From a bacterium (GTDB lineage: Bacteria; Verrucomicrobiota; Verrucomicrobiia; Limisphaerales; J093), in contig JAKANS010000002.1 of assembly GCA_021823625.1 (NCBI GenBank), positions 7,575 to 71,574 on the forward strand: a stretch of 64,000 nt of DNA, written 5' to 3'. The notes below the pieces were generated by a model that saw only the letters and a program-made list of their open reading frames with translations, was not told the origin of the DNA and searched no databases. Numbering within the stretch: position 1 is the first letter of the stretch; each line of letters opens with the position of its first letter. The position numbers and the translations under genes are program-made. Shown piece by piece: positions 12,495-29,013 of the stretch.

Positions 12495-12533
12495 GCAAAA
12501 ACGAAGCCGCGCGGCGAGCGGCCACCGCGCGGC
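12495..12533 (-). terminator. intrinsic terminator downstream of the M36 protease gene
   Basis: 9-bp GC stem (12506-12514 gccgcgcgg paired with 12525-12533 ccgcgcggc) with a 10-nt loop. On the minus strand TTCGTTTTTG follows (plus-strand aaaaacgaa at 12497-12505). It lies about 40 nt after the stop at 12573. Confidence 0.65.
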
Positions 12534-12572: not shown

Positions 12573-15500
12573 TCAAGGCGCGACGCCGCGATACACCCGG
12601 CTCGGAATGGTGACGGAGTCCGGATCGATAAACCGAAGCTCGCCGAAGCTCGCCTGGTTGGTGTAGATCCCCTGCCAGCGAGCCGGGAAGTTCGTGGCCG
12701 CCTGGATCACGTAGATTTGGTTGGTCTGACCTCGCAGGCGGATTTCCACCCCGCCGGTGAAGGCGCGGCCGATGGAGAGCACCGGCCGGGTGCCGTCGTT
12801 CGGCACCGCGACCGGCAACGCCACGTTGTCGATGAACGCCGCGTCCGAACCGAGGCTGCGGGCCGGATCCTTGACGTAGCGCCATTCCAGGGTGTGGTCG
12901 CCCGCGGTCACGGCGAACTCGAACTTGGTCCAGCCGACTTCACCGGTCCATTGCTGAACCAAGGTTCCGTCCACGTAGAATTGGAGGAAGTCGTAGTTCG
13001 CCTCGGAACTCACGCGGACATCGCAACTTGCCGTTCCCGCCCGCAACGTCTTGGCGAGTGTGAGCGAGCTGGTCTGGTTGTTGCCGATTTTGCCCGAGCG
13101 CACCGAGTACTTCCCGAGCGCGGCAGTCTCGTCGGTGACGTACCAAGGCACATCGCCGCCAGTCACCCAAGGCTGTTGCCCCAGACCACCGGACTCGAAG
13201 TCGTCGGCGATGGGTTGCGGCCGGAAGACGGCCTGCACGGTCATGTTCGTGGTGACGGGCACCGGCACCGGATTCTCGGAAGTGTTGATGTCCCCCTGCC
13301 AGCCGGTGAATTCGTAACCCGGATCAGGATCCGCCGCCAGTTGCACGCTGGCGTTGGCTTCCACGTCGATCACGCCGGCGGGCGGATAGGTCGCGCCGCC
13401 CGAAGCCGGGCCGACCGTGAGCTGGTAAAGCTTCGAGGGCACGAACGAGTAGGCCAGTTGCACCTGGCCGGTGGCCGCGTTGAAGCCATCCACCGCGATG
13501 GAGTAAACGACATTCGAGCGCACCGCCTGGCGGATTTTGCTGAACCTGGCGCCTTCGTAAGCGTCATCGTTGGAAGTGACAGTCCGAAGGATGTCCACGC
13601 GCTCACCCGTGTAAAGGCCCAGGAGCGTATCGAAATCGCTGCCCTCGGTACTCAGCAGCAATACTCCGTCGCTGGGCGCCCACCATTTCCACCAAACCGA
13701 TTTCCCACCGTCGTTACCGGCGTGGCGTGGCTCGCCATTTTCCCGGGTGGCGAGCGCGTTGGAAACGCTGTTCGTGCCCGCGTCGCCTTGCAGCCGCGTC
13801 GCGTTCACGAAGTGATCGTTCGGCGGTTCCGGCCGGCGGTAAGTCACCAGGATGTTGGTCATGCTGGCATTGCCCGCCAGGTCAGTGGCCGTGACCGTGA
13901 TGGTGTTGCGGCCTTCGCTCAAAGCAATGCGGTTGGTGGTGCTGCCTTCCGCGAGGGCGGCGGCCGGTTCGGCCGGGCCGAAGCTCCGCGGGCCGACCTG
14001 GAAAGTGATCTGGTCCACGCCGCTGGCCAGCGGTTCGGGATCGACCGCGGTGGCGACCACATCCACGACGTTGTTGGTCCAGATATAGCCGCTGGGCGGG
14101 CGCGAAACCGTGACGACCGGCGGCGTAATGTCCGGCGAGCCGTTGGGCGTGATGCGCAACTGGAGCACGCCGGCGCTGGCCGGACTCGCACCGGCGACCG
14201 AGATCTGATAAGTCTGGCCCTTCTTGGCATCGAAGTACAGGTAGCTCTGTTTGCGTTGCGGGACCGAGCCCACCGATGTCACCTCGGTGAGGTTGGTCAG
14301 GTTGTTGCCGGTGTACACGCCCACGACGCTCTGGAAGGCGCTGCCGGCGGTGTCCACCAAAACGGGGCTGTCATTGGTCGGCGTCCAACTCCACCACAGC
14401 GAGGCCACGAAGTTGCTGATTCCCGCCGGCGCCGGTTCGCCCGTTTCCGTGGTGGCGTACTTGTTGTTGGTGAAGAAATAGCCGCCCGGCGCGTTGACCT
14501 TGGCGCGGTTTTTGAAGAGGTCGTTGACCGGCTGCTGCGCCACGAAATAGTTCACCGACAAGGTGGCGTTGGTCTTGTCCGGCGCGTTGGCCGTTATGTA
14601 GAGGGTGATGTTCGTCGCGTTGACTGGCACGTCGAGAAGGCCCGTGTAAATCGAATCCGCCGGTCGGGCGTCCGGCGTCGTGCCTCCGTTGTTGATGGGG
14701 AGGTCGATCGAGCCATTGACCTTGGCGGTGACCGTGGCGTTGGTGACGCCGACGCCATCGCGGACCCGGATGTAAACCGGCATGTTCGTGCCACTCAGAA
14801 CGGTGGAGCGGTCGGGCGGAATCACCGTCAGCGAGAGTACGCCCGTGGGCGGCTGGATGCCGACGCCCGGCGGCAGATCGTAAGATTCCACCACGCCGAG
14901 GGTTGTGTCGCTGTCGGGGGCCGTGGCGCCGTAGCCCAGACCGCGTTTGGCGAAAGCCGTCCAGATTTCGGCGGCGTTGGCCCCGCCGGTAAGGACTTCG
15001 TCGGCTTGTACGATCGCATCCCGCGTCTCCACGAAAGTCGGATTGGCCGGACCCAGCTTCATCCCGTCGGTGACCAACTGCATGGCGAGCTGGTTGCCGG
15101 TGGCTGCGCCATAGGTGTCGATCAAATTGGCCCGCATCTCCCAAAGCATCATGCACCAGACTTCGCCCTGGTTGTGAACCTCCGGCGCGTAGTCGTACGC
15201 CACCGGGCTCTTCGGAATGCCGAAATGCGTGTCTGCCTGAGTCGGATCGATGTCCTTGAACGTCAGCGGATTCTTGAGCATGTCCGTGGAATACGGATAG
15301 CGCCGGATGCCGAAGTAATAATTCTCCGTCAGATCCGACAGGAGGTAACTCGCGTAGGCGCCTTCCTGGTAACAGGCGTGCGGGTCGTCGGTTTCCTTGC
15401 TCAGCAAGGCCAGCGAATAGAAGTCCGACCAGCCTTCGCCCATGCCCGCGGTTTGCAGGGCCGTGATGCCCACGCCCGCACCCACCAACCGGCCGCTCAA

Positions 15501-17102
15501 GCCGTGCGTATATTCGTGACAGACAATGTTCGCATCCAGCGAGCCGTCGCGATTCGGCACCGGCCCGTCGAAGATATACATCTGCATCCGGCCTGGATAG
15601 CCGTCCGGCGGCGGGTAAAAGTTCGCGTTGTTGCGGTGCGCGAAGTCGTTCAGAAGCGCGCCATCCAAAGCGTCGGCCTGCACGGCGTCGTTGCCCAAAC
15701 CGCCCCGACCGAAGTTGTTGTTCTGGAAGTTGCCGGCCGCCTCGGTGAAGCCGAGTTCGTACAACTTGTCGTGCATGAAATTGTTCAGGTAGAACAGATT
15801 CACCACGGTGGCATTCGTGTGGGTAACGGGTTGGATGGTAAGGTCCAACAGAAAGTCGAACACCGGCGGATCCTGCGTCGAGGAGGGCCGCGGCAGGTCG
15901 GGGTTGTTGTCGTCGTCCAAGTCCGCGTGGGCATCCACGTTGTTGCCGGTCGTGGTGTACGCGCCGGTAAACTGATCGGCCGCATCAAGCCACCCGGACG
16001 GCGACGCAGTCAGGTCAAGAGCGGTTAGATTGGTCACCAACGTCCGCGGCTGGAGGGGCGGCTGCTCGTCATTGGGCACCTGCCAGCCGGGGTTGAAGGG
16101 CGACGGGCTTTCGCCCAGGAACACGTTGTAGGTCGCCGCCACCGGGGTCGCCGGTGCGGCGTAGCAGGTCAGATTGTGGCGCACCACCACCTGGCCCGTC
16201 TGGGCATCCACCACGCTCAGGTACATTTCCTGGCGCGCCTTGCTCACAAAAATCACCTGCCAGGCCAGCCGCAGCGAACCGGCGTTCATCGGCAGCCAGA
16301 TGAGCTTGGCGTAGCTATCGCCGCTCAGCAGCGGCGCGCGCAGCTTGGTGTCCATTTCGGCGCCCACCGGTTCGCTGATCCGACGCACCGCGGCTTCGTC
16401 CACTTGATCGCCCACGTCCGCCGCGGCCTTCGCCAGGGCCCGGGCCATCGGGATCGGCGGGTTTTGAGTCAGCGCCGCCCAGGCGGGCGTGCCTTGCTCC
16501 GCCGCGGTCACGGGATCGGTCACGAACTGGCTGGCGATGCCCACCAATTCGCCTTTGGCGGTGACGTGGCTTTGCAGCACCGCTTCGAAAACCGAGATGC
16601 CGGCGACCTGCTGTTCCCAGACGGTCGTGTGGAGACCATTGTGCTTGGTGACGTAATCGCGCTTCACCACCGCGTTATCGAGACTGTCCGGGCCGTAGCC
16701 GAACAACGCCCGGTTCTCGGCCAGGAAAGCCTTGACCACACGATGCGGATCGTTGGCCGGAATCGTCGCGAGCGTTTGCGCGGACACGCCACCGCCCACG
16801 CCACCCCGACCGGTCAGGAATCCGGTTTCGGCGGTCACCAGACGGGGAGAGCGGGTGAGGTTGTGCGCCGACACCACGAGACTGGGAATGCGGTTGCGGA
16901 GGTTTGCCGCCGCCTGGGTTTGCGCGGGCGTGAAACCGAAGGTCCGCGGGGGGGTGGTAAGCATGAGACTCGGGCCGCTGGCAGGCGCCCGCTTGTCCAC
17001 GTTTGGCAGCGTAGCCACCGTGGGACTCTGAAAGGCCTGGAGCGAGGCCAGGCTCAGGATCGCGCCGCCCACCAAGGCGGCCTTTAGGACACGCGTCTTC
17101 AT
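12573..17102 (-). CDS. secreted M36 (fungalysin-type) zinc metalloprotease with long C-terminal extension
   Basis: HEYTHGLSGRL zinc motif (about nt 15495-15525) and GEGWSDF third-ligand motif. N-terminal signal MKTRVLKAALVGGAILSLASLQA. The ATG at 17102 is preceded by a GAGGTGA Shine-Dalgarno-like sequence; the ORF track starts at 17132. The C-terminal part holds an InlB-B-type repeat (YEFTGWQG), a jelly-roll-like domain (VRVSSEANYDFLQFYVDG) and a terminal domain ending in RVYRGVAP. Confidence 0.85.
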   Translation of the reverse strand: MKTRVLKAALVGGAILSLASLQAFQSPTVATLPNVDKRAPASGPSLMLTTPPRTFGFTPAQTQAAANLRNRIPSLVVSAHNLTRSPRLVTAETGFLTGRGGVGGGVSAQTLATIPANDPHRVVKAFLAENRALFGYGPDSLDNAVVKRDYVTKHNGLHTTVWEQQVAGISVFEAVLQSHVTAKGELVGIASQFVTDPVTAAEQGTPAWAALTQNPPIPMARALAKAAADVGDQVDEAAVRRISEPVGAEMDTKLRAPLLSGDSYAKLIWLPMNAGSLRLAWQVIFVSKARQEMYLSVVDAQTGQVVVRHNLTCYAAPATPVAATYNVFLGESPSPFNPGWQVPNDEQPPLQPRTLVTNLTALDLTASPSGWLDAADQFTGAYTTTGNNVDAHADLDDDNNPDLPRPSSTQDPPVFDFLLDLTIQPVTHTNATVVNLFYLNNFMHDKLYELGFTEAAGNFQNNNFGRGGLGNDAVQADALDGALLNDFAHRNNANFYPPPDGYPGRMQMYIFDGPVPNRDGSLDANIVCHEYTHGLSGRLVGAGVGITALQTAGMGEGWSDFYSLALLSKETDDPHACYQEGAYASYLLSDLTENYYFGIRRYPYSTDMLKNPLTFKDIDPTQADTHFGIPKSPVAYDYAPEVHNQGEVWCMMLWEMRANLIDTYGAATGNQLAMQLVTDGMKLGPANPTFVETRDAIVQADEVLTGGANAAEIWTAFAKRGLGYGATAPDSDTTLGVVESYDLPPGVGIQPPTGVLSLTVIPPDRSTVLSGTNMPVYIRVRDGVGVTNATVTAKVNGSIDLPINNGGTTPDARPADSIYTGLLDVPVNATNITLYITANAPDKTNATLSVNYFVAQQPVNDLFKNRAKVNAPGGYFFTNNKYATTETGEPAPAGISNFVASLWWSWTPTNDSPVLVDTAGSAFQSVVGVYTGNNLTNLTEVTSVGSVPQRKQSYLYFDAKKGQTYQISVAGASPASAGVLQLRITPNGSPDITPPVVTVSRPPSGYIWTNNVVDVVATAVDPEPLASGVDQITFQVGPRSFGPAEPAAALAEGSTTNRIALSEGRNTITVTATDLAGNASMTNILVTYRRPEPPNDHFVNATRLQGDAGTNSVSNALATRENGEPRHAGNDGGKSVWWKWWAPSDGVLLLSTEGSDFDTLLGLYTGERVDILRTVTSNDDAYEGARFSKIRQAVRSNVVYSIAVDGFNAATGQVQLAYSFVPSKLYQLTVGPASGGATYPPAGVIDVEANASVQLAADPDPGYEFTGWQGDINTSENPVPVPVTTNMTVQAVFRPQPIADDFESGGLGQQPWVTGGDVPWYVTDETAALGKYSVRSGKIGNNQTSSLTLAKTLRAGTASCDVRVSSEANYDFLQFYVDGTLVQQWTGEVGWTKFEFAVTAGDHTLEWRYVKDPARSLGSDAAFIDNVALPVAVPNDGTRPVLSIGRAFTGGVEIRLRGQTNQIYVIQAATNFPARWQGIYTNQASFGELRFIDPDSVTIPSRVYRGVAP

Positions 17103-17120
17103 CGAATCACCTCTGCGGTT

Positions 17121-17167
17121 GAAAACTAACACACAGGCGCGCCGCGCACGAGGGCACGGACGCGCCC
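17121..17167 (-). terminator. hairpin plus T-rich tract between the 1008-aa gene and the M36 gene (possible terminator/attenuator)
   Basis: Stem 17136-17144 (ggcgcgccg) pairs with 17157-17166 (cgg-a-cgcgcc, one bulge). On the minus strand TGTGTGTTAGTTTTC follows. It sits about 28 nt after the stop at 17195 and just ahead of the M36 SD/ATG. Confidence 0.4.
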
Positions 17168-17194: not shown

Positions 17195-20100
17195 CTATGG
17201 GTCATAGCGGACCCGGTAATACCGCTGCCCGCCACCGGCCGGGCTGACCAAATTCGTTACCGTCAAAGTCTGGATCGTCGGCGCGGCGTTGGTGGCGGCG
17301 GCGAACACCGTCCACATCGGTGCCACGAGATTGGTGACGTACTCGACCGCGTACCCGGTCTGGGCGGCCGCCCGCCAAGACAACTGGGTCGTGTACGGAT
17401 CCGTGCTGAGGATCTTGAAATCGGTGATCAGCACGTCGTCGAACGGATATTGGTCGTAGCCGTTGGCCAGCCCGTCGCCATCCGAGTCAATGGTCTTGCT
17501 GTCCACCAAACCGACGTTTACATGCAGGGTCTTGCCGTTGCGCAAAGCCACATCCACGCCACTCGCCGGTCCAGCATAATCTTTCACCCAGTGCAACTGG
17601 CCGCCGAACAGGCCGTCGATTTCCTCTTCGCCCAGGTTGGAGGCGGCAAAGTAGATGTTCAGCCCCGGTTCGATCACGATATAGGCCGCGGGATCCAAAG
17701 CCACGCTGTTCGTAGCAAACTCGAGGTAATCCACATACAGCGCGTAGTTGCCGGGCAGCGGGGTGCCCATGCCGTCCGTGGGCGGTCCGAAACGCAGTTC
17801 CCCGTTCGGCAGACTGTCCAGCACGAGCCGGCCGATCGCCGCGTTGTCCTTGAAACCGTCTTTGCGCGCGCCGCGGTCCGCCGCGGCCCAAGTATGGGAC
17901 ACGCTGGTAAACTGGGGGGCGCGAGTGCGGAAGGTGGTGCCCAGCAGGTCACCGTAAGCGGGTTTGCGCAGCAGGCTGAAACCGTCGGACAACTCGATCA
18001 AATTGTTGGCCCCCGCCCCCACGTCGCTAAAGCTGTTCGTGACATTGATGAAGAAGCCCCGGCTGGCAACGACGTGGGTGTTCCGCAGTTTGTAATCGTT
18101 GCCATAATAGTGGACCGCTCCGCTGGCGTTTTCGTAAGCGCTATCCAGGACCGCCGTGTTCGCGAACACTCGCAGGTCGTTGTTGTTTTGGATGGTCCCG
18201 GAATCTTGGAAGAAGTCGCACGCGATTTCGTGCGCGCCCGCCCGGAGCGTCCCGGTGTTGACCATTTGCAGTAGTTGCTGGCCGGCCGGATAATCGCCCC
18301 CGTAGTAAGCGACGTTCGGGATGTTGATCGTTCCGTTGTTGGTCATGTACCGCAACCCCGGCGTCAGGTCGCCCGTCCAGTTCACCAGCGGCCCGCCCAG
18401 CGAGAAGTTGCTGTTCACGGTCAAGCTCTCAGCCGCAATGTCCATTTTGCTGCTCACCAGAAAAGGATCGTCGATCACCACGTTCGTACTCGCCAGAGCG
18501 AGCGTGTGGGTAACCACCTGTTGGGTCCTTGTGAGCAAATCGGCGCTGAGCACAAGACAGTAGATGCTGACATCCACCGGGTTGGTAACGGGGTTGAAAT
18601 AATTCGTGTTGGCGTCGATGAACCAGTTCGACAGCACCAAGGCAAACTGGTTCGACCACACGCCACTCCAGGCGTAGATGTTGCCATTAACGGCGTGCGT
18701 CGAGTCCTTCGACAGGCTCTGGATGGTCAGCAGACCGTTGGTGGAAGCCATGTCGTAAATGAGATTCGGAACATCGATCTTCGCGCCGGCGCTGTTCTTC
18801 AGGTGCTTGGCCTTGATACTCACCGTGCTCATGCCCCGGATGCGGGTGTTACTCAAGTCAACGGTGTCGCCCGCAATCTCGATCCGCCCGCTCGTGTTGG
18901 TCACATCGACGCCCGGCACCGGCGGCGGACGGTTTTCGAGATTGTCGATGAAGCCCCCGTAACCGGCGTACAAGTTGGTCGCATACACGTTGGAGAAGCT
19001 CAAATCGTAAAGGAACGAGTTGAAAATCGGACTATTACCGTTGGCACCGATGGCAAACTCGAACGGCTGCTCCCGGTAGATCCGATAGGCGTAAGGCCGC
19101 ATCGTCGGCACCCAAACCAACAGATTCGTCAAGGACAGCGTGTTGGTATTGTATCCCAAGTAATCCACGAAGTAGATGGCACTGGTTTCAGCCGAAGCCG
19201 TGATGACGTTGGTCGTTTGGGAGGCAATCTCGACCGCCACGGTGCCCATACCCATTCCGGCCGGACCGGGAGGGCCGAATTTGGTCCGAACCGTGAAATT
19301 GGTGTCGCCCACCCCCACAAGGACCGCCTGGCGATAAATATTGGTGGGCATGATCAGGTTCGAGATCGACCCATCGAAGTTAGTCAGGGTCAACCCAGTA
19401 AAGCCCACGACGCCGGTGTTGCCAAACGAGGTGTTATACTCGGGTGGAATGAAAGTGCTGACACCGGTCAGGAACCATCCGAACTTGTTCGTCACCGCAT
19501 GGAATGGGGAGTTGACCAGGAAGCCCCCGCTCTGCGGTCGCAGAATCGCCGCCGTGTTGATGGGACCGAAAATCGGCGGCGGATCCTGTACGCCGGAACC
19601 CCAGTAAAGGTCGAACATCGCGCTGTCGGGGTAGAAAGAGTCCGGTACGTTGTCCCGATCGACATCGAATATCGCGTTGGCGAAGCCGAACGAGGTTAGC
19701 GGCTGCACTTCCAAGCTGCCGCGAGACAAATTCACGTTTTGACCGGTGATCGAGAGGATGCCGGCGTTCCCCACGCCGATATAGCCCGAACTGGCTACGT
19801 TCGTGGCCGAGATCAGCAGCATCGTCTGGCTATAGGCGCCTGGTCCCCAATAGTCCGGAAGCACGTAATACTCCAGTGCGGCGACCCGGCCGGAATTGTC
19901 GTTGACGAAATTGGCCGACGGGCGATGGAAACCGTTGTCGTCGATGTAGTCGAATCGAAAGCCCGGCACACCGATCATGGCGCCGCGGTTCGTGTAGTAC
20001 CGCGTATTCGTGAAATCGTACGGCAGCGTCATCGTGAAATCGTACGGCAACGGCGTGAACGCCTGGAACGTGCCCAGATTGACAAACGCCGTGGCGTCGA

Positions 20101-20221
20101 TTTGCGGCGGGTTGGTGACGATGGTGCCCGAGTTGATGTAAATGGGCAGGGTACTCGAGCCGGCGCGCACGAGCACCGGCAGCACTGCTGCCCCCGCCAG
20201 GAATGTCAAAAGCCGCTTCAT
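17195..20221 (-). CDS. large secreted hypothetical protein (1008 aa), probably beta-helix/adhesin-like
   Basis: Signal peptide MKRLLTFLAGAAVLPVLVRAGS. N/T/G-rich, repeat-poor sequence. Asp-rich Ca-binding-type motif DSDGDGLANGYDQYPFDD. C-terminal domain ending in QRYYRVRYDP. No catalytic motif recognised. Confidence 0.75.
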   Translation of the reverse strand: MKRLLTFLAGAAVLPVLVRAGSSTLPIYINSGTIVTNPPQIDATAFVNLGTFQAFTPLPYDFTMTLPYDFTNTRYYTNRGAMIGVPGFRFDYIDDNGFHRPSANFVNDNSGRVAALEYYVLPDYWGPGAYSQTMLLISATNVASSGYIGVGNAGILSITGQNVNLSRGSLEVQPLTSFGFANAIFDVDRDNVPDSFYPDSAMFDLYWGSGVQDPPPIFGPINTAAILRPQSGGFLVNSPFHAVTNKFGWFLTGVSTFIPPEYNTSFGNTGVVGFTGLTLTNFDGSISNLIMPTNIYRQAVLVGVGDTNFTVRTKFGPPGPAGMGMGTVAVEIASQTTNVITASAETSAIYFVDYLGYNTNTLSLTNLLVWVPTMRPYAYRIYREQPFEFAIGANGNSPIFNSFLYDLSFSNVYATNLYAGYGGFIDNLENRPPPVPGVDVTNTSGRIEIAGDTVDLSNTRIRGMSTVSIKAKHLKNSAGAKIDVPNLIYDMASTNGLLTIQSLSKDSTHAVNGNIYAWSGVWSNQFALVLSNWFIDANTNYFNPVTNPVDVSIYCLVLSADLLTRTQQVVTHTLALASTNVVIDDPFLVSSKMDIAAESLTVNSNFSLGGPLVNWTGDLTPGLRYMTNNGTINIPNVAYYGGDYPAGQQLLQMVNTGTLRAGAHEIACDFFQDSGTIQNNNDLRVFANTAVLDSAYENASGAVHYYGNDYKLRNTHVVASRGFFINVTNSFSDVGAGANNLIELSDGFSLLRKPAYGDLLGTTFRTRAPQFTSVSHTWAAADRGARKDGFKDNAAIGRLVLDSLPNGELRFGPPTDGMGTPLPGNYALYVDYLEFATNSVALDPAAYIVIEPGLNIYFAASNLGEEEIDGLFGGQLHWVKDYAGPASGVDVALRNGKTLHVNVGLVDSKTIDSDGDGLANGYDQYPFDDVLITDFKILSTDPYTTQLSWRAAAQTGYAVEYVTNLVAPMWTVFAAATNAAPTIQTLTVTNLVSPAGGGQRYYRVRYDP

Positions 20222-20268
20222 AGCCGAATCAAAGTCGTTTCCGAGCCAACTCCTGGCTCAATCTGGGT

Positions 20269-21807
20269 TCACGGGGTTGTTCCACCTGTCCCGGTCGTGC
20301 TGGTTGTTCCGGTCGCTGTAACCGTGATGAACGGAGAAAGCCACGGGGTCTGGCTGCTGTCACTCATGCTCCCCGAGAGGACCAGGCGTTCCAAGTCTTG
20401 GATGCTTGCACCGAAAGGATAAATGACCGGCTCCGCCGTAGTCCCGTCATAAGTCCCCCAGAAGAAACCCGGGATACTATCGGCTTCTCCACCTTCGGGA
20501 ACGTTGATGAGAAACTGGCCCAACTTGCTGAAGGTGATCGTGACGGGGGGCTGTATCAGCCCGGGACCGGCCAACGTCTCGCTGCCGTTCTGCGCATCCA
20601 AGTTAACCAGCGGAATGGTCCGGCGGTACATGACCGGCGACGTGACCCCGATGCCGAGGTCCGCCGCGGTGAAAAGCACGTCCGGGGCCGTCAGCGTACG
20701 CTGCACGGTCTGACTACGCTGGGTGTAATTGGTGATGTACTTGTCCACGTACACGTTCGTCAGCGCCACCCAGCCGCCGACCAAGGAATCGTAGTTCACC
20801 CGCGCAAAGCTGACCTTGTCCACGCCCGAACGGAGTGCGACGTCGATCGCCGCCAGGTTGGTTCCCACCGCGTTGGTGAAACCGGAAGGAGCACCCCACG
20901 GGTTTGAGCTGCCGGATCCGGTGCTGCCCCCGATCAGGTAAGTGCCGCTTGCCGTCCCCGGCGACGCCTGCACCACGTTCGTGGCCAACGTTTCGACGTT
21001 GTAGTTGGAGGGCCGGTACAGGTAGCGCAACGCAGCCACGTCGTCGCGGGTCAGGCCGGTGAAGAACAGCCCAGGCGAGGTGTTGACCGTCCAGCCGGAG
21101 GCAAAGATTCCCACCGACAGCCCTATGAACGAGGACACGGAATTGACGCTCGGAACAGTAGGATCCACCTCGAACTCCACCGCTTCATACGTGGGCGTCG
21201 TAATCGTCTGGAGAATCTGATAGGTGTAAAGCACGGAGTTGACGTACGCGCTGGGTTGAAGCGAGAGCGGATCGAAGTTGCGTCTGATGACCGTGTAGAA
21301 AGGAATGTTGTTGATCACGACGCGCGATCGCAGCGTCCAGACGTACCGCTCTGCCGGCGCGGCCCCCATGACCTCCATCAGCGCGGCCATCGCGTACGAC
21401 CGCAGATCGTACAGGTACAGCGCCGTCGCCCGGTGGTTGAAGCGGCGGGTATCCAAGGGAAACTCAGACAGATCCGCGCTCATTTGTGAGGTTGCCGGCA
21501 GGTCGTTGAAGACCTTGATGGCCTTCTCCACCTCTTCCACGCCTTTCGCGCCAAAATAATTGAGGAACGATTCGTCGAACCCGTAGGTGATCAAAGGCAG
21601 GTTCCACCGGTATTCCTCCCCCAAGTTCATCGGCCCCCCCACGTCCGGTGGGAGGGTGTTGTTTCCAAGATCCAGCCCCCCGAGCTGGTAGCCGATTTCC
21701 GGCGTCATCCAGGTGTCGAACGCGCCCAGCAACGAGAACGCCTGGGCGCGGGGCAACGCGCCGGCGAGGGCGAGGACCAGCAGGATTCGAGCGAACAGAG
21801 CACGCAT
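20269..21807 (-). CDS. secreted hypothetical protein (512 aa)
   Basis: Signal peptide MRALFARILLVLALAGALPRAQA followed by FSLLGAFDTW. Thr/Gly-rich tail (TATGTTSTTGTGGTTP). The start lies 3 nt after the stop of the upstream 691-aa gene. No family recognised. Confidence 0.75.
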   Translation of the reverse strand: MRALFARILLVLALAGALPRAQAFSLLGAFDTWMTPEIGYQLGGLDLGNNTLPPDVGGPMNLGEEYRWNLPLITYGFDESFLNYFGAKGVEEVEKAIKVFNDLPATSQMSADLSEFPLDTRRFNHRATALYLYDLRSYAMAALMEVMGAAPAERYVWTLRSRVVINNIPFYTVIRRNFDPLSLQPSAYVNSVLYTYQILQTITTPTYEAVEFEVDPTVPSVNSVSSFIGLSVGIFASGWTVNTSPGLFFTGLTRDDVAALRYLYRPSNYNVETLATNVVQASPGTASGTYLIGGSTGSGSSNPWGAPSGFTNAVGTNLAAIDVALRSGVDKVSFARVNYDSLVGGWVALTNVYVDKYITNYTQRSQTVQRTLTAPDVLFTAADLGIGVTSPVMYRRTIPLVNLDAQNGSETLAGPGLIQPPVTITFSKLGQFLINVPEGGEADSIPGFFWGTYDGTTAEPVIYPFGASIQDLERLVLSGSMSDSSQTPWLSPFITVTATGTTSTTGTGGTTP

Positions 21808-21810
21808 AGG

Positions 21811-23742
21811 TTACCGGACGCGAATAACGCGATAGTAAGCGGTGGAGTTGGTGCCGGGAATGACGGAGGAAGCGACGCTCCCCGGAGCGAACGCAGGTCC
21901 CGCGGCATCCGACCAAGTTTTCAAATCGGTCGAGGATTGGAGTTGGTAGATGGAACCCGGCAGGGCGTTCCATTGGACCAGGAGACCGCCGGTCGTGGGC
22001 TTAATGCCGACCCGCAGGGCACTGTCCCCTTTCGTTGGGTCGGTTCCGGCCAGGAACTCAGCCAGGTTCGAGGCGCCATCGCCGTCGGAATCCACCGTTG
22101 GAATTGGCCAGGTCGAGCTGTCCGGCCCCCAATACAGCGTCTGCCAATCGTCGGGCAGGCCGTCGTGGTTGCGGTCGCGGCCCCAGGTCGTGCCGCTGGC
22201 CACGTCCGACAGCGGCGAAACGCGACCGCCCGTCAACTCATAGGCCAGCCGGAAGCTGTGCACCGTTGCGGGATCCAGATCGCTCAGAATGTAGAAATTG
22301 CTGGTCAGAGCCACCGGCGTCGCCGCTCCGTCCACGAAGAGACGGTAGCCCGCGAGGTCGGTGTAGCCGGCCAGCGGCGCCCAGCTCACCATCAACGAGT
22401 ACGAGTCCAGCGCGGACACGACCGGTGCGCTCGGCGCCGGCAGCACCTGTTCACCCGCAAACCGTTGGCCAAAAATCTCGAAACTCGCGTCCCCGCCGGC
22501 GAATCCGGCCCAAGCCACCAGGAACCGCCCGCTGCCATCCGCCGCCACCATGGGTTGGAGTTGCTGGCTGACGGTGGTGGTGTTGATGAGGAATTCGCCC
22601 CCCGCCGGACCGTCCGAGCTCAGCAAGCGCCCGTAAATGCCGTCGCGCGAGCCATCCTGCCAAAGACTGTCCCACACCACGAGCCGGGTGTCGCCCAGGG
22701 CGGCGAGCTGCGGCGAAAACTGATTGTTCGGCCGGTAGGTGTTGACCACGGCCGGGGCGCCGACCGGCTGCCCCGCGGTGTCGAAATTACCCACGACCAC
22801 GTCCCACATGTTGGTCAGGTCGGGGAGATAACGCTCGCTCCAGGCCGCCACGAAGCCGCCGTTCCAACCGCGGGCCAGCACCGGGTTGGCGCAGAGGTTG
22901 GTCGCGGTGTTGAGCCGGAACTCGTCGCCGAGCGGATTGCCGGAAGCGTCGAACCGCCGGGCGAAGACCTCCACGCTGTTTTCGTAGCTCTGCTGCTCGC
23001 TCACCCACGCCGCGACAAATGCGCCCCCATCGACCGGGGTCACGGCCGGATTCCGCTGGTTGAAACTGCTGAACTGGTTGATTTGAAATTCGCCGCCCAG
23101 CTTGTCGCCGTTCGGCGCGAGGCGCTGCCCAAAGACGCCCTGCATGCTGCCGTCCTGGCCGAAGCCGCTCCAGAGCACGACCAGGTTGCCGTCGGGCAGG
23201 AGTGCGATGGCCGGGTTGGCGCGCTGGTTGCCGGTGGCCGCGTTCAACCGCAGGTCGCCCGTCGTGAAAGTGCCTTCCGGGCCGATGACGCGAGCCCAAA
23301 TGTCCTGCGATCCCTGCTTGCCCCCCTGCCAAACGAAGACCGCCCCACCGTCCTTGAGCAATTGAACCTGCGGATTCTCCTGGTCATCGGCCGTGCTTTC
23401 GTTGACCCGGAACATCCGCGTGGGAATGGGTGAAAGCGAGCCGTTCAGCTTCGCAGCCCCGATGCCGAGACCCGCGCCGTCCACGGCGTTGTCCTGCCAG
23501 ACCGCGTAGCCGCCACTGGCGTCGAGGCTGAGGTGGGGATGCGTCTGGTCCCCTGGCATTCCGCGCGTGATCAGGTACTCGGTGCCTTGCGCCGCGGCCG
23601 TCAGGTCGGCCGCCGCCATGCTGCTCGTAGCGGCCATCCCGAGGGCCAAGGACAGCCGGACCGCCCGGCCAGCGTCACGCGCCCGGACCACGGCCGGGTT
23701 CGCCGACGCGCTTCGAGGGCGTCCACTCATTGTTCCGCTCAT
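21811..23742 (-). CDS. secreted repeat-propeller / FN3 protein (about 643 aa from the ATG at 23742)
   Basis: Six to seven repeats of about 55 aa (pattern EF.(I/V/L)N......Q..P.V....DG.FVV.W......DGS..G(I/V)FGQR(F/L)). An FN3-like segment follows (SYSLMVSWAPLAGYTDLAGYRLFVDG), then DxDxDG-type motifs (DRNHDGLPDD, DSDGDGASNLAEF) and a C-terminal domain ending in AYYRVIRVR. The ORF track starts at 23886. The ATG at 23742 places a Tat/Sec-like basic N-region before a hydrophobic stretch. Confidence 0.75.
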   Translation of the reverse strand: MSGTMSGRPRSASANPAVVRARDAGRAVRLSLALGMAATSSMAAADLTAAAQGTEYLITRGMPGDQTHPHLSLDASGGYAVWQDNAVDGAGLGIGAAKLNGSLSPIPTRMFRVNESTADDQENPQVQLLKDGGAVFVWQGGKQGSQDIWARVIGPEGTFTTGDLRLNAATGNQRANPAIALLPDGNLVVLWSGFGQDGSMQGVFGQRLAPNGDKLGGEFQINQFSSFNQRNPAVTPVDGGAFVAAWVSEQQSYENSVEVFARRFDASGNPLGDEFRLNTATNLCANPVLARGWNGGFVAAWSERYLPDLTNMWDVVVGNFDTAGQPVGAPAVVNTYRPNNQFSPQLAALGDTRLVVWDSLWQDGSRDGIYGRLLSSDGPAGGEFLINTTTVSQQLQPMVAADGSGRFLVAWAGFAGGDASFEIFGQRFAGEQVLPAPSAPVVSALDSYSLMVSWAPLAGYTDLAGYRLFVDGAATPVALTSNFYILSDLDPATVHSFRLAYELTGGRVSPLSDVASGTTWGRDRNHDGLPDDWQTLYWGPDSSTWPIPTVDSDGDGASNLAEFLAGTDPTKGDSALRVGIKPTTGGLLVQWNALPGSIYQLQSSTDLKTWSDAAGPAFAPGSVASSVIPGTNSTAYYRVIRVR

Positions 23743-23992: not shown

Positions 23993-24577
23993 TCACTGGG
24001 CCGGACTGAACGGCGATTGCGACGGCAATTTGTTGGGATCGTACGGGAGATTATTTTCGTCGTGCACCCGGTTGCCGGCCGGATCGATGATCGTGGGGGT
24101 CACGAAAATGACCAGATTCTTCTTCGAACTCGACTTCGCCTCGCTGCGGAACAAGCGGCCGACCAGCGGCAGATCGCCGAAGACGGGCACCTTGTCCTTG
24201 ACCTTGGTGACGCGCTCGGAGATCAAGCCGCCCAGCACCACGGTCTGTCCGTCCCACACGATCGAACTGGTCACGACCTGGCGGATGCGGAACCGCGGCA
24301 GCGGCACCGGCGCGGCCAGGTTGCCGACGACCGCCCGGAATTGGCCGGGATCGTCGTAGCCGAGGAATTCGGTAACCGTCGGCAGCAGGTTTAGTTGGAT
24401 GGTGTAACCATCCGCCGAAACGTGCGGGATCACGTCCAAGGTCGGGCCGATCGGCACCGGGACGGTGGTGGGTTGAATCGTCGGGGTGGCCGCCGCCTGG
24501 TTGACCACCTGGGCGTGGGCCAGGCCGCCCAACCCCAAAACCGCCGCACCGAGCAGAACAAGCGCTTTGATTCTCAT
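23993..24577 (-). CDS. secretin C-terminal half (second part of the PF00263-type secretin domain) with its own signal peptide
   Basis: MRIKALVLLGAAVLGLGGLAHAQ signal, then LDVIPHVSADGYTIQLNL, WDGQTVVLGGLISE, KVPVFGDLPLVGRLFRS and NLVIFVTPTIID, which is the canonical C-terminal secretin signature. It is in the same frame as the upstream 826-aa ORF and is separated from it by a single TAA. Confidence 0.8.
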   Translation of the reverse strand: MRIKALVLLGAAVLGLGGLAHAQVVNQAAATPTIQPTTVPVPIGPTLDVIPHVSADGYTIQLNLLPTVTEFLGYDDPGQFRAVVGNLAAPVPLPRFRIRQVVTSSIVWDGQTVVLGGLISERVTKVKDKVPVFGDLPLVGRLFRSEAKSSSKKNLVIFVTPTIIDPAGNRVHDENNLPYDPNKLPSQSPFSPAQ

Positions 24578-24610
24578 ATCGAATGTCTGGTCGAAAGTTG
24601 GATCCACCGG

Positions 24611-27061
24611 TTACTGGACGACCCCAACACCCGTCGTCGTCCCACCACCCACCGTGCCTGTGCCGGTAGTAGTGGTGCCGCCGCCGATGCCGCCGGCCTG
24701 GTTATACGAAACCACCGTCTGGAGATCGATGATTTGAATCTGTGCCTGGCGACCGCTCACGGTCGTCACTTTCGGGGCGGAGAGCACATCCACGCCGCCG
24801 CGTTGTTCCAGTGCCCGGATCACCACCCGGAATTGGGGATCCGTCATGATGCCGGTGACCGTCGCGAGGGTTGGGATCGCTGTGCCGCCGACCTCCGTGC
24901 TGCGCAATCCAGAGGTGATTATTTGATCCGTACCGGCGTTAGGCGCCACCGCCGGCGCTCCGAAATTGCCCGGAAACACGCCGTAAGGGTTCGCGGCGGA
25001 GGGCGTGCCCGCATACGAAGGCGCCGTCCCGCCAGAGAGGCCGACGTTGCCGCCCGCCATGTTGAAATTACCCAAATACCAGTCGAAGCCGAGGGCCTTC
25101 GCGTCGTCCTGCCCGATTTCGACGAACTTGACCTCGATGGTCACCTGATCCGGCGTCATGTTTAGGGCTTGGATCGCCTGATCGATGATCTCGAGATCCT
25201 GCATGGTCGCCCGAACCAAGAGGAGCCCGGTGCGGTCATTAAAGAACAAAGCTTTGCCTTGGGCGTTCTGGAAACCCGCGCCGGCCGCGCCGCCTTGGAA
25301 GCCGCCCGCGCCGCTGAAACCGCCGCCACCCTGGCCGAGAATGTTCTGGCCGCCCAGATCGACACCTGCCGCGGTGAAGTATTGCCGCACGAGGTCGTTG
25401 ACGTAGGACATCGGGGTCGATCCCGCCACGCCAGTGGGACTTCCACCGCTGCCGAGTCCACCGCCACCGCCTTGGCCACCGAGTCCACCGCCTTGGCCGC
25501 CATAGCCACCGCCACCCCCGCCGATGCCGCCACCACCACCGCCACCATAGCCGCCGCCGCCGCCGAAACCGCCGCCGCCTTGGCCGCCATAGCCACCACC
25601 GCCGATACTCACCCGCGCAATCGACAGACCGCCACCGCCGCCTTGGCCGCCATAACCGCCACCACCACCGCCGTAACCGCCACCACCACCACCACCGCCG
25701 AGGCCGCCGCCACCGCCGAGACCTCCGCCACCCAAACCGCCACCCCCGGTACCGCCAGTACCACTGCCGCCGAGCACACTGGAATAATCGATGGCATAGA
25801 CGCCTTCGAGTCCTTGCACGAACGTGTTCGGGTTGACCTTGAAGGTCTTGGTAAAGAGCTGTTCGCCTTCGGGAATCTTCTTGCTGAACACGATCGCGTA
25901 TTCCTCGACCGAGTACTTGATCTGCTTCTCAGCCACTTTGACGATTGCGTCCAGCACGTCGGCCAAGCGCACGTCATGCAGTGGCGGCTCGATCTTGATC
26001 TGGACTTCGCCCAGGTCGAACTGCTCCTGCTCGGGCGCCGCGGTCACCGGCTGCCCGGTCTGCGGATCGAAGGTGGTCAGCCCGGCCGCCGCCTGACGCG
26101 GCTGGGAGTCGATGGTCGGGGCAATGATGAAATTGAGCCCCTTCTTGTCCGGGTCGCGCAGACGGGCTTCCTCGTCCAGATAGGTGACGGCCTCGCTCAA
26201 CGACACGCCGGGGAAGTCCACTTTCTCGAGGCGGATGCGATCAAGCTTGGAATAAATCATTCGGCGGCCTGGACCGGTATAAACGGTATTGGTACGGGCA
26301 AACGGGTTGGCCACCGGCAGCTTCTCGCGCGAGATGGACGGATTCCAAGCCTCCTCGACCTCGACCATCTTGTTGCGAGCCATGATTTCGCGCTTCACGG
26401 CATCTTGCTTGTACCGCAACTCCTGAACCATGGTGAGATAATAACCCGCGGCGCGGTTCTCCGGATCGATCTTGATCGCCTGCCGAAGCTTCCCTTCCGC
26501 CTCGTCCAATTTGCCCATTTCATAAAGCAGCTTGGCATCCTGCACCAAACTACCTGCGTCCAACTTGGACTGGTGGGCCTCCGGCAACAGGGCGACGATT
26601 TCCTTGCTGGGGGTTCGCCCCTCGAGCGCCTTGAGCGCCTTGTCCACCTTCACCTTCAACTCTTGCGCCTCGGGGTTCTTCGGATCCACCCGGAGCACGC
26701 GCGACACCTGCCGGTTGGCCTCTTCGTAGGCGGCGCTGGCATAGGATTTCTTGCTGAGCGCCAGGTAGGTGGCGGAGAAGCCGGCCACGGTCTCTTTGCG
26801 CTCGTTCTCGATGCTCGTGTCTCCGATGCGCTGGACCAAGCTCCAGCACTCTTCGTACAACCGGGACGCATCCATGAGGTTGCCCTGGCGGGACTGGGCG
26901 GCCGCCTCCTTCAAATCTTTGCGCAAGAGAATCCGAAGTTCCTCCCGCCGTACGGCTTCCTCGGCCGCAGTCGTCTGCGCCGCATTCGTCTGGGCCCGGG
27001 CAGTGGGCACCGCCACCCAGAGGGCCGCCGCGGCGACGGTGATGAAGGCAAATCGAATCAT
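24611..27061 (-). CDS. secretin N-terminal part (TPR-like region, N-domains, Gly-rich domain, first strands of the secretin domain); Amuc_1098/PilQ-like
   Basis: Signal MIRFAFITVAAAALWVAVPTARAQ (ATG at 27061). TPR-like helices (KLLYEMGKLDEAEGKLRQAIKIDPEN). Secretin N-type domains (IRLEKVDFPGVSLSEAVTYL; LLLVRATMQDLEIIDQAIQALN; VTIEVKFVEI). VLSAPKVTTVSGRQAQIQI marks the start of the secretin domain. The ORF ends at the TAA at 24611-24613. Confidence 0.8.
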   Translation of the reverse strand: MIRFAFITVAAAALWVAVPTARAQTNAAQTTAAEEAVRREELRILLRKDLKEAAAQSRQGNLMDASRLYEECWSLVQRIGDTSIENERKETVAGFSATYLALSKKSYASAAYEEANRQVSRVLRVDPKNPEAQELKVKVDKALKALEGRTPSKEIVALLPEAHQSKLDAGSLVQDAKLLYEMGKLDEAEGKLRQAIKIDPENRAAGYYLTMVQELRYKQDAVKREIMARNKMVEVEEAWNPSISREKLPVANPFARTNTVYTGPGRRMIYSKLDRIRLEKVDFPGVSLSEAVTYLDEEARLRDPDKKGLNFIIAPTIDSQPRQAAAGLTTFDPQTGQPVTAAPEQEQFDLGEVQIKIEPPLHDVRLADVLDAIVKVAEKQIKYSVEEYAIVFSKKIPEGEQLFTKTFKVNPNTFVQGLEGVYAIDYSSVLGGSGTGGTGGGGLGGGGLGGGGGLGGGGGGGGYGGGGGGYGGQGGGGGLSIARVSIGGGGYGGQGGGGFGGGGGYGGGGGGGIGGGGGGYGGQGGGLGGQGGGGGLGSGGSPTGVAGSTPMSYVNDLVRQYFTAAGVDLGGQNILGQGGGGFSGAGGFQGGAAGAGFQNAQGKALFFNDRTGLLLVRATMQDLEIIDQAIQALNMTPDQVTIEVKFVEIGQDDAKALGFDWYLGNFNMAGGNVGLSGGTAPSYAGTPSAANPYGVFPGNFGAPAVAPNAGTDQIITSGLRSTEVGGTAIPTLATVTGIMTDPQFRVVIRALEQRGGVDVLSAPKVTTVSGRQAQIQIIDLQTVVSYNQAGGIGGGTTTTGTGTVGGGTTTGVGVVQ

Positions 27062-27118
27062 GGATGGGTTATTTCGCAAAACGGAAGACATAAAGCAATG
27101 CGGATTACGGAGCGGCCT

Positions 27119-27916
27119 TCAGCGGTTGAGCGAGATCACGGTTCGGCGTTTGGTTTTCTCGTCCTCGATTGTAACGTCCGAGGCACTGATGGCAACGACA
27201 TTGTAGGTGGAACCGGCCACGGTGAGCTTGCTGCCCTGCCTTTCCTTCAAGAAGGTGCGGCCTTCGCCCTCGTGGCGCAGGTCGGCCGAGTAACCCGCCA
27301 CTTCGTTGTAACCTTTGTCCTTGGGAACCACCACGGTGGTGCGCGAATCCGCCAGCTCCACGCGAAAGCCATCCGGGCGGTCCTTCGGCCCCATGACCTC
27401 TTTGAGCAGGATGACATCCGGTTTGTCGTTGATGGCAAGAATCACGATGCGACCGTGCTGCAGGCTCGACACGGTTGCCGCCTGGTTTTGCACGTAGAAG
27501 CGGTACCTCGTGGCGGTGCCGCTTCGAGAGAGGCCCTGGAATTCGATGCGGAGCATCAGCGGCGTGATATTCGTAACGATCAGTCCCTCCAAACCTGAAG
27601 GCGGCGGGGGAATCGGCGGAAAGCCTCCGGGACCCCTGCCTTTCATCCAGGTGCCGGAAGGATTGAACAAACCGTGTTTGCCGGTCCCGAAACCGAACTT
27701 GATGGGCCCCTTCAGTCGGGCGAGCACGGCTTCGTTCGTGGAGAGGTTGAGTTCGGGAATCGGCGCCACCTTGGGGTCATCCACCGCACTCGTCACCACC
27801 GCGAGCCTCTCCCGGACGTTGGCCACTTCGAAAGGCAGATAACCGGCCGCCACCGCCAAGCTGAGCAAGACCACGCTCAGCAGTATCTTCTCGTAGTGCT
27901 TCTTTAGAAAGTCCAT
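27119..27916 (-). CDS. membrane-anchored hypothetical protein in the PilP / Amuc_1099 position
   Basis: 265-aa ORF with an N-terminal TM (ILLSVVLLSLAVAAGYLPF). It lies between the PilO-position gene and the secretin, with an 8-nt gap upstream. The function is inferred from position only. Confidence 0.55.
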   Translation of the reverse strand: MDFLKKHYEKILLSVVLLSLAVAAGYLPFEVANVRERLAVVTSAVDDPKVAPIPELNLSTNEAVLARLKGPIKFGFGTGKHGLFNPSGTWMKGRGPGGFPPIPPPPSGLEGLIVTNITPLMLRIEFQGLSRSGTATRYRFYVQNQAATVSSLQHGRIVILAINDKPDVILLKEVMGPKDRPDGFRVELADSRTTVVVPKDKGYNEVAGYSADLRHEGEGRTFLKERQGSKLTVAGSTYNVVAISASDVTIEDEKTKRRTVISLNR

Positions 27917-27924
27917 GCGTCAAC

Positions 27925-29013
27925 TTAGGGGGAGGGCGTGGCTTCCGGAGCCGCCGCTGGATCGGGTGGAGCCGCTTGCGGATCGCCTGCAGCCGCCTGC
28001 CCGCGCGCACCGCCTGACCGGCTGGCCTTGGCTTCGTTCGGATCGCGGAGCCTGACGATGTCCACCCAGGCTGTCACGCGGAAGGGTTTTTCGCTGACGA
28101 TCTTCGCGGCGTCTTCCTGGGCGGTCAGCGTCGCCGAATCCATCGGTTGCGGGGCCATTGGCATGCGCCCGCGCAAACCGTACCGCATCATCATCATCAT
28201 CGCGGGACTCATCGCAGGCATGTTACCCTCGCCGCCGCCCGTGGGCGCGTAGATGTCAACCGTATTGGTGTCCCCGGTATCGACGATCAGGTTTTTGAGC
28301 AGCAAGCTGTGAGGGTTGCGGGCCAGACCTTCGAGCACGGACTGCAACTCGCTGCTGAAACAGCGGAAAGTGAACTCGTAAGGGATCACCACGGCCAGGT
28401 CGTTGGTAACGGCTTTTCGCGTCCAGTAATCCGAAGTGCCGCCCATCATTCCGATTCCGGGCGTGTCTTGCGTGGCCAGCGAGATACGGCGGATCCGTTC
28501 GAGTTCCAAAACCTTCGCATCGAAGATAATCTCGCAGACTTCCTTGATTTCCATGAGCGCGCGCGTCAACGGCACCACGGTGTTGGCCTCGACGAACGCG
28601 AGTGGTTTCTGGGCGGCGAAGGTAAAGGCGTAATTGTCAGGGAGTTTCGTGCTCGACTGCCGCGCCAACCGCTGCAGGTAGTCCACCGTGGTGTCGAGCA
28701 GGAGTTTGAAATCGCCGCCGCTGAGGTTGGTCGGGTACGGTACGGGGACGAACTGTTGCTTCGCCCGCGCGGCAAAGACCTCGAGTTTCTCCTCCTGCTG
28801 CCGCGCGGCGGCGATGTTGTCCACCTTCCGGTTGCCCGGATGCGGTTTCATGCGGAGCAGCCCCTGCAACTCAGTGTCCTGCGCCTCGAGCTTGGTCGTC
28901 ACCTCCGCCGAATGCTGGATCTTGAGGTAGAGAAAATAGCCGGCAAAACCCAGGAGAGCCAAAGCCGCGACCCCGCTGATGACCAGCGTGAGGTTTTTTT
29001 TGATCCAGTCCAT
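27925..29013 (-). CDS. Amuc_1100-like / PilO-position pilus-complex protein
   Basis: N-terminal TM (LTLVISGVAALALLGFAGYFLYL), then a coiled-coil. The segments IPYEFTFRCFSSELQSVLEGLARNPHSLLLKNLIV and EKPFRVTAWVDIVRL resemble, from memory, the Akkermansia Amuc_1100 segments LEIAFQGDRESVLKAMNAI...FTVNSIRI and QVFVKVSLNLVHF. There is a 3-nt gap to the pilMN stop. Confidence 0.5.
   Translation of the reverse strand: MDWIKKNLTLVISGVAALALLGFAGYFLYLKIQHSAEVTTKLEAQDTELQGLLRMKPHPGNRKVDNIAAARQQEEKLEVFAARAKQQFVPVPYPTNLSGGDFKLLLDTTVDYLQRLARQSSTKLPDNYAFTFAAQKPLAFVEANTVVPLTRALMEIKEVCEIIFDAKVLELERIRRISLATQDTPGIGMMGGTSDYWTRKAVTNDLAVVIPYEFTFRCFSSELQSVLEGLARNPHSLLLKNLIVDTGDTNTVDIYAPTGGGEGNMPAMSPAMMMMMRYGLRGRMPMAPQPMDSATLTAQEDAAKIVSEKPFRVTAWVDIVRLRDPNEAKASRSGGARGQAAAGDPQAAPPDPAAAPEATPSP

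Follow-up and report, generated by a model that had tools for sequence, protein, structure and literature searches.

Why three adjacent genes for large exported proteins should sit directly behind a secretin gene, and whether they serve that secretin, is the question raised by this 64,000-nucleotide (nt) stretch of a verrucomicrobial genome (contig JAKANS010000002.1 of assembly GCA_021823625.1), the whole of which we call the window. The genes, here named A, B and C, follow one another on the minus strand:

Gene A: 21811..23742, minus strand, 643 amino acids (aa) from the ATG at 23742; the longest open reading frame (ORF) extends to 23886.
Gene B: 20269..21807, minus strand, 512 aa.
Gene C: 17195..20221, minus strand, 1008 aa.

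A preliminary description, made from the letters alone, had reported a tight trio of these sizes, and the ORF coordinates agree, with 3 nt between the stop of A and the start of B and 47 nt between the stop of B and the start of C. We read the trio, probably together with the exoprotease gene that follows it (gene D), as an order-specific exoprotein operon whose products would form a complex at the cell surface. We give this reading a chance just short of even, and in it the link to the secretin is positional and not required.

The conservation of the trio was followed in 20-kb stretches around matches to B, 60 loci in 59 genomes of the order, which were annotated with profiles for A, B, C and the neighbours in the window. 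In about 55 of these loci the genes run on one strand in the order PilM, Amuc_1100, a 265-aa protein (p265), secretin, in part of them an exonuclease, then A, B, C and a large exoprotein, usually followed by CoaE. Hence, the conserved module supposed in the preliminary description does recur as a syntenic unit (A-B-C in about 55 of the 60 loci). Gaps A-B and B-C have medians below 10 nt in these loci, several genes overlap by 4 nt, and such short gaps and overlaps persist in lineages whose proteins are 32-50% identical to those of the window. The slot after C is taken in relatives by an M36-type, S8-type or Calx-beta-type giant exoprotein. A and B are unbroken across all 59 genomes. In one genome (G395) we found A and B only, and in two families (f69 and f98) the canonical position holds A and then a B protein of about 1275 aa, with C not found. 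A-B is thus the invariant core, while C is absent or replaced in three lineages. The idea that the long B proteins are fusions with C was rejected, as their 750-residue extension aligns with C at an hhalign probability of 0.2%. In a comparison of distance matrices from which the PilM signal had been removed, the correlations within the trio were highest for A-B (about 0.39) and B-C (about 0.34), which is weak evidence that allows no test of significance.

Regarding the phyletic range, the B profile matched 135 of the 151 sampled genomes of the window's order, and 106 of the 110 high-quality ones. PilM is present in all five high-quality genomes that seem to be without B, and since their loci are cut off by contig ends or scattered over small contigs, we take these absences as assembly gaps, which makes a comparison of co-loss uninformative. 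Among 300 genomes from the rest of the phylum, B gave one fragment-level match (E 4e-4) and the C profile none at E <=1e-25. The organism labels of the relatives of A and C read Verrucomicrobia, Limisphaerales or Pedosphaera. According to these results, the A-B-C block is nearly universal in, and specific to, one order of the Verrucomicrobiota, probably Limisphaerales.

The gene cluster in front of the block is much more widespread. Of 36 genomes outside the order but within the class, 27 have the PilM-secretin cluster, and in the 17 loci of other orders that were analyzed it is followed by the exonuclease and CoaE genes in five and by other, mostly housekeeping genes in the rest; none of the 17 has A, B or C. 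In the order itself, the secretin and A are separated in 29 of 54 loci by a gene for a 5'-3' exonuclease of about 300 aa. The simplest history would be one insertion of A-B-C-D between the exonuclease and coaE genes in the ancestor of the order, after which some lineages, that of the window among them, would have lost the exonuclease gene here. The adjacency to the secretin may then be historical. It is also poor evidence of a functional link, because the same string keeps the exonuclease and CoaE genes, which are unrelated to pili. In genome G371 the block, with its giant exoprotein, lies on a 78-kb contig without pil genes and the PilM-secretin cluster is on another contig with other genes after it, which shows that the block can move as a unit. 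The string of secretin, 5'-3' exonuclease and CoaE itself was seen in five loci from several other orders and, with the block inserted, in the 29 loci of the order. In another genome (G467), genes for 524 and 1006 aa after the secretin were considered as distant analogues of B and C and proved to be PurH and a TPR glycosyltransferase.

The unit probably does not end with C. In the window C is followed by a fungalysin gene (D), by a probable coaE and then by the gene of a 2859-aa Calx-beta/PKD protein:

Gene D: 12573..17132, minus strand, 1519 aa, an M36 (fungalysin) exoprotease that carries an InlB-B repeat and shares the end module of A and C.
Terminator-like hairpin: 12506..12533, minus strand, 12 pairs, 10 of them G-C, then a T run; directly after gene D.

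The hairpin at 12533-12506 is the sole strong terminator-like site on the minus strand between 11.5 and 31.2 kb, in a scan that used a consensus only and gave 23 sites, mostly weak, against 19.3 expected. Since no strong terminator precedes this hairpin, co-transcription of A, B, C and probably D is plausible, as judged from gaps and terminators in the sequence. The unit of three genes first described would probably be one of four, since a large exoprotease with the same tail usually follows C, around an invariant core of two.

The three proteins share no homology outside a C-terminal tail present in A and C, and none of them matches a characterised family or shows a recognisable catalytic motif, as the preliminary description had also noted. 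In protein A, a weak Sec-type signal peptide is followed by a propeller, an FN3 domain, TSP3-type calcium loops and a C-terminal FN3-like end module:

A propeller: about residues 58-430, nt 23571-22453, minus strand, seven blades.
A FN3 domain: residues 436-514, nt 22437-22201, minus strand, Pfam and profile match.
A TSP3-type calcium loops: residues 520-575, nt 22185-22018, minus strand.
A end module: residues 576-643, nt 22017-21814, minus strand, ending YYRVIRVR.

Seven invariant tryptophans (W82, W138, W191, W246, W301, W357 and W411), spaced by 53-56 residues, indicate seven repeats and not six, so that only the upper figure of the 'six- to seven-blade' protein first proposed is kept. The FN3 domain and DxDxDG motifs reported for A were both recovered: Pfam fn3 matches at E 5e-4 (weaker than the Pfam cut-off), the A family profile matches the FN3 domain of chitinase A1 (1k85) at 3e-5, and the calcium loops read DRNHD (residue 523) and DSDGDG (residue 551). 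Of 53 members of the family, 42 match TSP3_bac. Relatives of A number more than 1000, all of them unnamed or labelled just as FN3- or TSP3-containing. Weak matches to the GH43 family (PF04616) appear in 19 of 53 relatives, the best at 2.6e-6. We rejected a five-blade GH43 glycosidase as an identity for A, given the seven repeats and the lack of a PF04616 match at E <=0.1 in the A protein of the window. A also scores 15.8 bits with Amuc_1099_fam (cut-off 50; E 0.008), over a 30-residue calcium loop only. The third gene of the pil cluster, at the Amuc_1099 position, codes in seven loci of other orders for 311-405 aa with a TSP3-type calcium loop, which matches the A profile weakly. In the window's order, the 265-aa protein is without this loop.

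Protein C has a signal peptide, a beta-solenoid-like core, a beta-rich domain, a calcium loop and the end module, in this order:

C core: about residues 25-780, nt 20149-17882, minus strand, beta-solenoid-like.
C beta-rich domain: about residues 796-905, minus strand.
C calcium loop: DSDGDG at residue 912, minus strand.
C end module: residues 932-1008, nt 17428-17198, minus strand, ending QRYYRVRYDP.

The AlphaFold2 model of C (pLDDT 91) is nearly all beta, with rungs of about 20 residues over residues 446-780, a predicted fold that is consistent with a beta-solenoid. Foldseek found nothing for this model in the PDB at E <=0.001: the best match was a GH110 galactosidase (E 7.5e-3, probability 0.12), Pet, Hbp, IgA1 protease and Hap gave E values of 0.9-3.3 with probabilities <=0.05, and tailspikes came at E of about 1. 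C has no Pfam match, and this includes the autotransporter beta-domain (PF03797) and the two-partner secretion (TPS) domain, in a search in which the Autotransporter model did fire on other proteins. Asn and Thr make up 16.6% of C, compared with 9.8% of PilM. Hence, the N/T-rich beta-helix proposed for C survives as a moderately N/T-rich protein with a solenoid-like model, and no significant fold match attaches it to a known helix. At least 284 relatives of C were found, labelled only 'hypothetical', 'FN3 domain-containing' or 'TSP3 repeat-containing'.

In the end module of A and C, a DxDxDG loop precedes a stretch of about 70 residues that contains a conserved W and, at its end, the motif (F/Y)YR(V/L). 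Using a tail profile, we found the module at <=12 residues from the stop in 58 ORFs of the window's genome, on 49 contigs and with lengths of 78-3434 aa; these are A, C, D, the 2859-aa neighbour and 54 other ORFs. A and C themselves match at E 7.5e-25 and 1.8e-24, scores that are partly circular because the profile was built mainly from the tails of their families, while the other 56 terminal matches are independent. Among the related loci the module is present in 44 of 56 A proteins, in 43 of 55 C proteins and in none of 60 B proteins. In one sublineage, A is reduced to its propeller (about 450 aa) and C has a different, longer C-terminus, the tail being missing from both together. We compared the module with the C-terminal domain of the type IX secretion system (T9SS) of Bacteroidota; the models of that domain (PF18962 Por_Secre_tail and TIGR04183) did not match A or C, and searches of the module against Pfam and NCBIfam gave no match to them at E <=0.01. 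While the trio is confined to one order, the module is also abundant in genomes from elsewhere in the class.

Protein B carries a Sec-type signal peptide (residues 1-23), and the start of the mature protein, AQA|FSLLGAFDTW, is conserved family-wide, with A23, F24, G28 and W33 each conserved in >=90% of the family. Two domains follow:

B N-domain: about residues 24-290, nt 21738-20938, minus strand.
B linker: residues 295-316, minus strand, disordered, Gly/Ser.
B C-domain: about residues 320-480, nt 20850-20368, minus strand, beta-rich, with a Thr/Gly tail after it.

This Thr/Gly tail, considered as an echo of the Gly/Thr-rich tail of the secretin, is an unconserved feature of a few lineages, and the idea was dropped. 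For its size, B is the best conserved member of the trio: 33 columns of the family alignment are invariant, among them 14 charged residues (E65, R67, D78, R154, R176, D215, R254, D256, R326, D355, D376, D383, D454 and E473) spread over both domains. There is no Cys, a single His (no His is invariant in the family) and no HExxH. No Pfam or NCBIfam family matches B, Pfam is also silent on 59 relatives of B, and the PDB holds no sequence relative. The AlphaFold2 model (pLDDT 80, pTM 0.79) found nothing in the PDB or BFVD at E <=0.001 by Foldseek. The remote-homology and fold searches suggested at the outset thus end, for both B and C, in confident models without a known relative. The sole recurring Foldseek matches of B are catalytic domains of matrix metalloproteinases (MMPs), over the 34-48 columns of a short beta-alpha unit in the N-domain and with probabilities <=0.18. 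We considered B as a degenerate metzincin, on account of these matches and of the motif YRWN..ITYGFD.., and rejected it, since B lacks a zinc site, the Foldseek matches fall short of significance and hhalign pairs B with the metzincin region of the window itself at a probability of 0.3%.

Relatives of B are numerous, more than 865 in a set of 5.8 billion proteins and 1598 clusters at 50% identity in a set of 1.84 billion, where the matches listed were the best 150; all are unnamed. In some families B has a central insertion or a C-terminal He_PIG domain, which brings it to 670-870 aa. Genomes G308, G391, G337 and G413 (two families, genomes of 2.6-3.7 Mb, five loci) have <=9 B-domain matches each; those that we inspected are in ORFs of 1250-1330 aa, one of these long B genes occupies the canonical place behind A, and C is not detectable there. 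In two further loci (from G340 and G353) B is broken by stop codons, as are several of its neighbours in G353, by pseudogenisation or assembly error.

The preliminary description had rightly found B to be without a recognisable motif and without the shared C-terminal domain, and had suggested that it could be an accessory or chaperone and not cargo. B is not general machinery for the tail, because two genomes of other orders (G456 and G465) are rich in tail-bearing proteins, with 27-30 such ORFs each, and have no B; we rejected a general receptor or chaperone of the module on these grounds. A lone 522-aa paralogue of B even ends in a tail-like stretch of its own (...SDW...QRYFRTVPQ). A role as specific partner of A and C may still hold.

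Putting these observations together, we propose that A-B-C and D are a vertically inherited, probably co-transcribed exoprotein operon. The block would have entered the ancestor of the order whole and stayed in place since, between the exonuclease and coaE genes found in sister orders behind the pilMNOPQ-like Amuc_1101-1098 cluster. A, B and C would all be exported by Sec, with A as a propeller head on an FN3 stalk and C as a shaft of about 750 residues built like a beta-solenoid. A and C most likely reach the surface, or stay there, by the route that serves the whole class of proteins with the end module, and B, without such a tag, is most likely the third subunit, to which A binds and usually C as well. 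A calcium-stabilised complex of the three would serve surface binding or substrate capture next to a co-encoded exoprotease. Several points weigh against this proposal. While our results show the anatomy, export signals, synteny, phyletic range and insertion history of the trio and its lack of a known family or fold match, the co-transcription, the surface location, the complex and the binding role are what we infer. The many invariant charged residues of B are as expected of an enzyme no less than of a structural subunit. Finally, block and secretin are co-directional with no terminator between them, and the branch on which the block arose is also the one on which the secretin gained a Gly-rich insert, so that the two may be linked in function.

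One could argue, indeed, that A, B and C are a dedicated cargo, or an extracellular or outer-membrane accessory, of the adjacent machine and are exported by its secretin. The genes of this machine in the window are:

PilM-like gene of the Amuc_1101 family: 29017-30924, minus strand, NCBIfam Amuc_1101_fam 5e-145.
Amuc_1100-family gene: 27925-29013, minus strand, NCBIfam Amuc_1100_fam 8e-13.
Gene for the 265-aa protein (p265): 27119-27916, minus strand, between the Amuc_1100-family gene and the secretin.
Amuc_1098-family secretin: 24611-27091 and 23993-24607, minus strand, two in-frame pieces, NCBIfam 4e-74 and 7e-38.

An in-frame TAA (24611-24613) divides the secretin of the window into pieces of 826 and 204 aa. 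The two-piece form, with a C-part of about 195-245 aa, was also seen in seven related loci, while most relatives have a single secretin ORF of 900-1010 aa. The C-terminal piece (23993-24607) lies 106-250 nt from A. Thus A is immediately downstream of the secretin in the window, as first stated, which does not hold for the 29 of 54 loci with the exonuclease gene in between.

These genes belong to the families of the 'pili-like' cluster Amuc_1098-Amuc_1102 of Akkermansia muciniphila, which comprises the PilQ secretin, Amuc_1099, Amuc_1100 and the PilM/FtsA-like Amuc_1101 (PMC5332112, PMC10688800), and they are in the same order as there. The trio does not belong to that cluster: none of the three rises above the cut-off of NF042912, NF042425, NF038287 or NF045709, with B and C giving no match at all. 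The Akkermansia-type cluster also occurs without A, B and C in other orders, so that the trio does not co-occur wherever the cluster does. Our literature search found no description of A, B or C, and the Akkermansia papers cover only Amuc_1098-1102.

A dependence on this secretin would be in line with the position of the block, which is always co-directional with the secretin gene and directly 3' of it or with only the exonuclease gene between, and with the lack of a strong terminator from the secretin to D. The locus genes of the machine include no ATPase or pilin, which leaves its output undefined. Moreover, the secretin has a Gly-rich low-complexity domain that is order-specific like the block. 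In the most Gly-rich 60 aa, the Gly fraction is 0.40-0.80 in 54 secretins of the order and 0.12-0.32 in 17 from other orders (medians 0.62 and 0.22), with no overlap among complete genes. In the window this domain spans 25271-25800 (residues about 440-610), and it was gained on the same branch as A-B-C.

Several results speak against this explanation. The co-gain of block and Gly-rich insert is a single phylogenetic event; the exonuclease and CoaE genes are equally conserved in the string, which makes synteny weak functional evidence; and in G371 the block and the secretin cluster are on different contigs. The end module of A and C is common to about 56 other ORFs on 49 contigs, and the genome has five further secretin genes (contigs C82, C322, C10, C40 and C211), four of them near ATPase genes of the type II secretion system (T2SS) type. 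The four pil proteins have distance correlations of 0.57-0.66 among themselves and of 0.30-0.55 with A, B or C, which is weak evidence, and removal of the PilM signal leaves a secretin-A correlation of about 0. We consider such a dependence rather unlikely, and the module of the preliminary description is thus attached to the secretin locus by position, in a way that one ancestral insertion explains. A more specific version is improbable in our view: that A-B-C and the Gly-rich insert are a lineage-specific remodelling of the Amuc_1100-type pilus-like machine, with the trio as a non-pilin extracellular structure or as cargo that goes through the secretin or docks on it, and with B and C as new folds for secretin-associated proteins. 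Regarding the motor of the machine, contig C235 carries three pilB/pilT-type ATPase genes and a platform gene, and no secretin; this cluster is a likely motor partner of the PilM-secretin cluster of the window.

Known systems of pilus-linked exoproteins help to place the trio. PilY1 is a large exported multi-blade propeller protein with a DxDxDG-type calcium site, encoded near pilus genes, and A is likewise an exported propeller with calcium loops near pilus-type genes. However, neither A nor C has a Pfam match to PilY1/PilC, the calcium loops of A are in its generic tail and not in the propeller, and in every other order the machine does without A. No minor-pilin gene was recognised among the genes seen at 3-32 kb of the window (pilM-like, Amuc_1100-like, secretin, exoproteins, CoaE and epimerase), where no search was aimed at prepilin-type genes. 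Some exoproteins do leave the cell through pilus machines, such as the proteases of Dichelobacter nodosus and TcpF of Vibrio cholerae. Here too, a pilus-type secretin locus without T2SS genes of its own has exoprotein genes beside it, one of them for a protease, but the likeness is one of gene position only, in a genome with five other secretins. As for C, the passengers of autotransporters (Pet, Hbp and Hap) and the depolymerases of phage tailspikes are the nearest, non-significant, Foldseek neighbours of its solenoid model, at E 0.4-3; in contrast to autotransporter and TPS adhesins, C has no beta-barrel or TPS domain, and it shows no catalytic motif.

A second alternative to the surface complex is that B is an enzyme of a new fold, acting for instance on surface glycans or on A and C, with these two as substrate-binding or anchoring partners. 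The fourteen invariant charged residues over both domains of a protein so well conserved for its size would suit an enzyme, and so would the large size of the family (1598 clusters), with its stand-alone and multi-copy paralogues of 1250-1330 aa. One B paralogue carries the end module, as other exoenzymes do, and the beta-alpha unit of the N-domain is the one that Foldseek paired with the MMP catalytic domains. Yet B is without a known catalytic motif (one His, neither Cys nor HExxH) and without a match in Pfam, NCBIfam or the PDB, and its likeness to MMPs spans just 34-48 columns at a probability <=0.2, the hhalign value for the metzincin being 0.3%. We regard an enzymatic B as quite improbable. 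The last alternative, that A, B and C have no joint function and are unrelated exoproteins kept side by side by inherited gene order in a slowly rearranging region, would agree with a surrounding string (epimerase, pil genes, exonuclease and CoaE) that is conserved without functional unity, with the loss or replacement of C and with the lack of homology between the three outside the tail, but is very unlikely given that gaps of a few nt or overlaps of 4 nt persist at 32-50% protein identity, that A-B is unbroken in 59 genomes, that the block moved whole in G371 and that A and C gain or lose the tail together.

The exoprotein operon that we propose is of interest beyond this window. Loci of the Amuc_1098-1102 type are well known because Amuc_1100 of Akkermansia is under study as a host-active surface protein, and a whole order of mostly uncultured Verrucomicrobiota from soil and freshwater carries a fixed extra block of exoproteins beside such a locus. 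The block holds two large families without annotation, B with about 1600 clusters and C with at least 284 relatives, whose confident models match nothing solved. If the block did depend on the secretin, it would be the first candidate output of this machine. If it is independent, nearly the whole order still shares it as a surface feature, one well worth structural and functional work. The case also illustrates how conserved adjacency can arise from a single insertion into a stable gene string.

The base composition of the block varies in one place: GC falls to 0.577 at 18001-20000, inside gene C, from about 0.64 around it, a dip that parallels the Asn/Thr/Ile/Tyr-rich composition of the protein.

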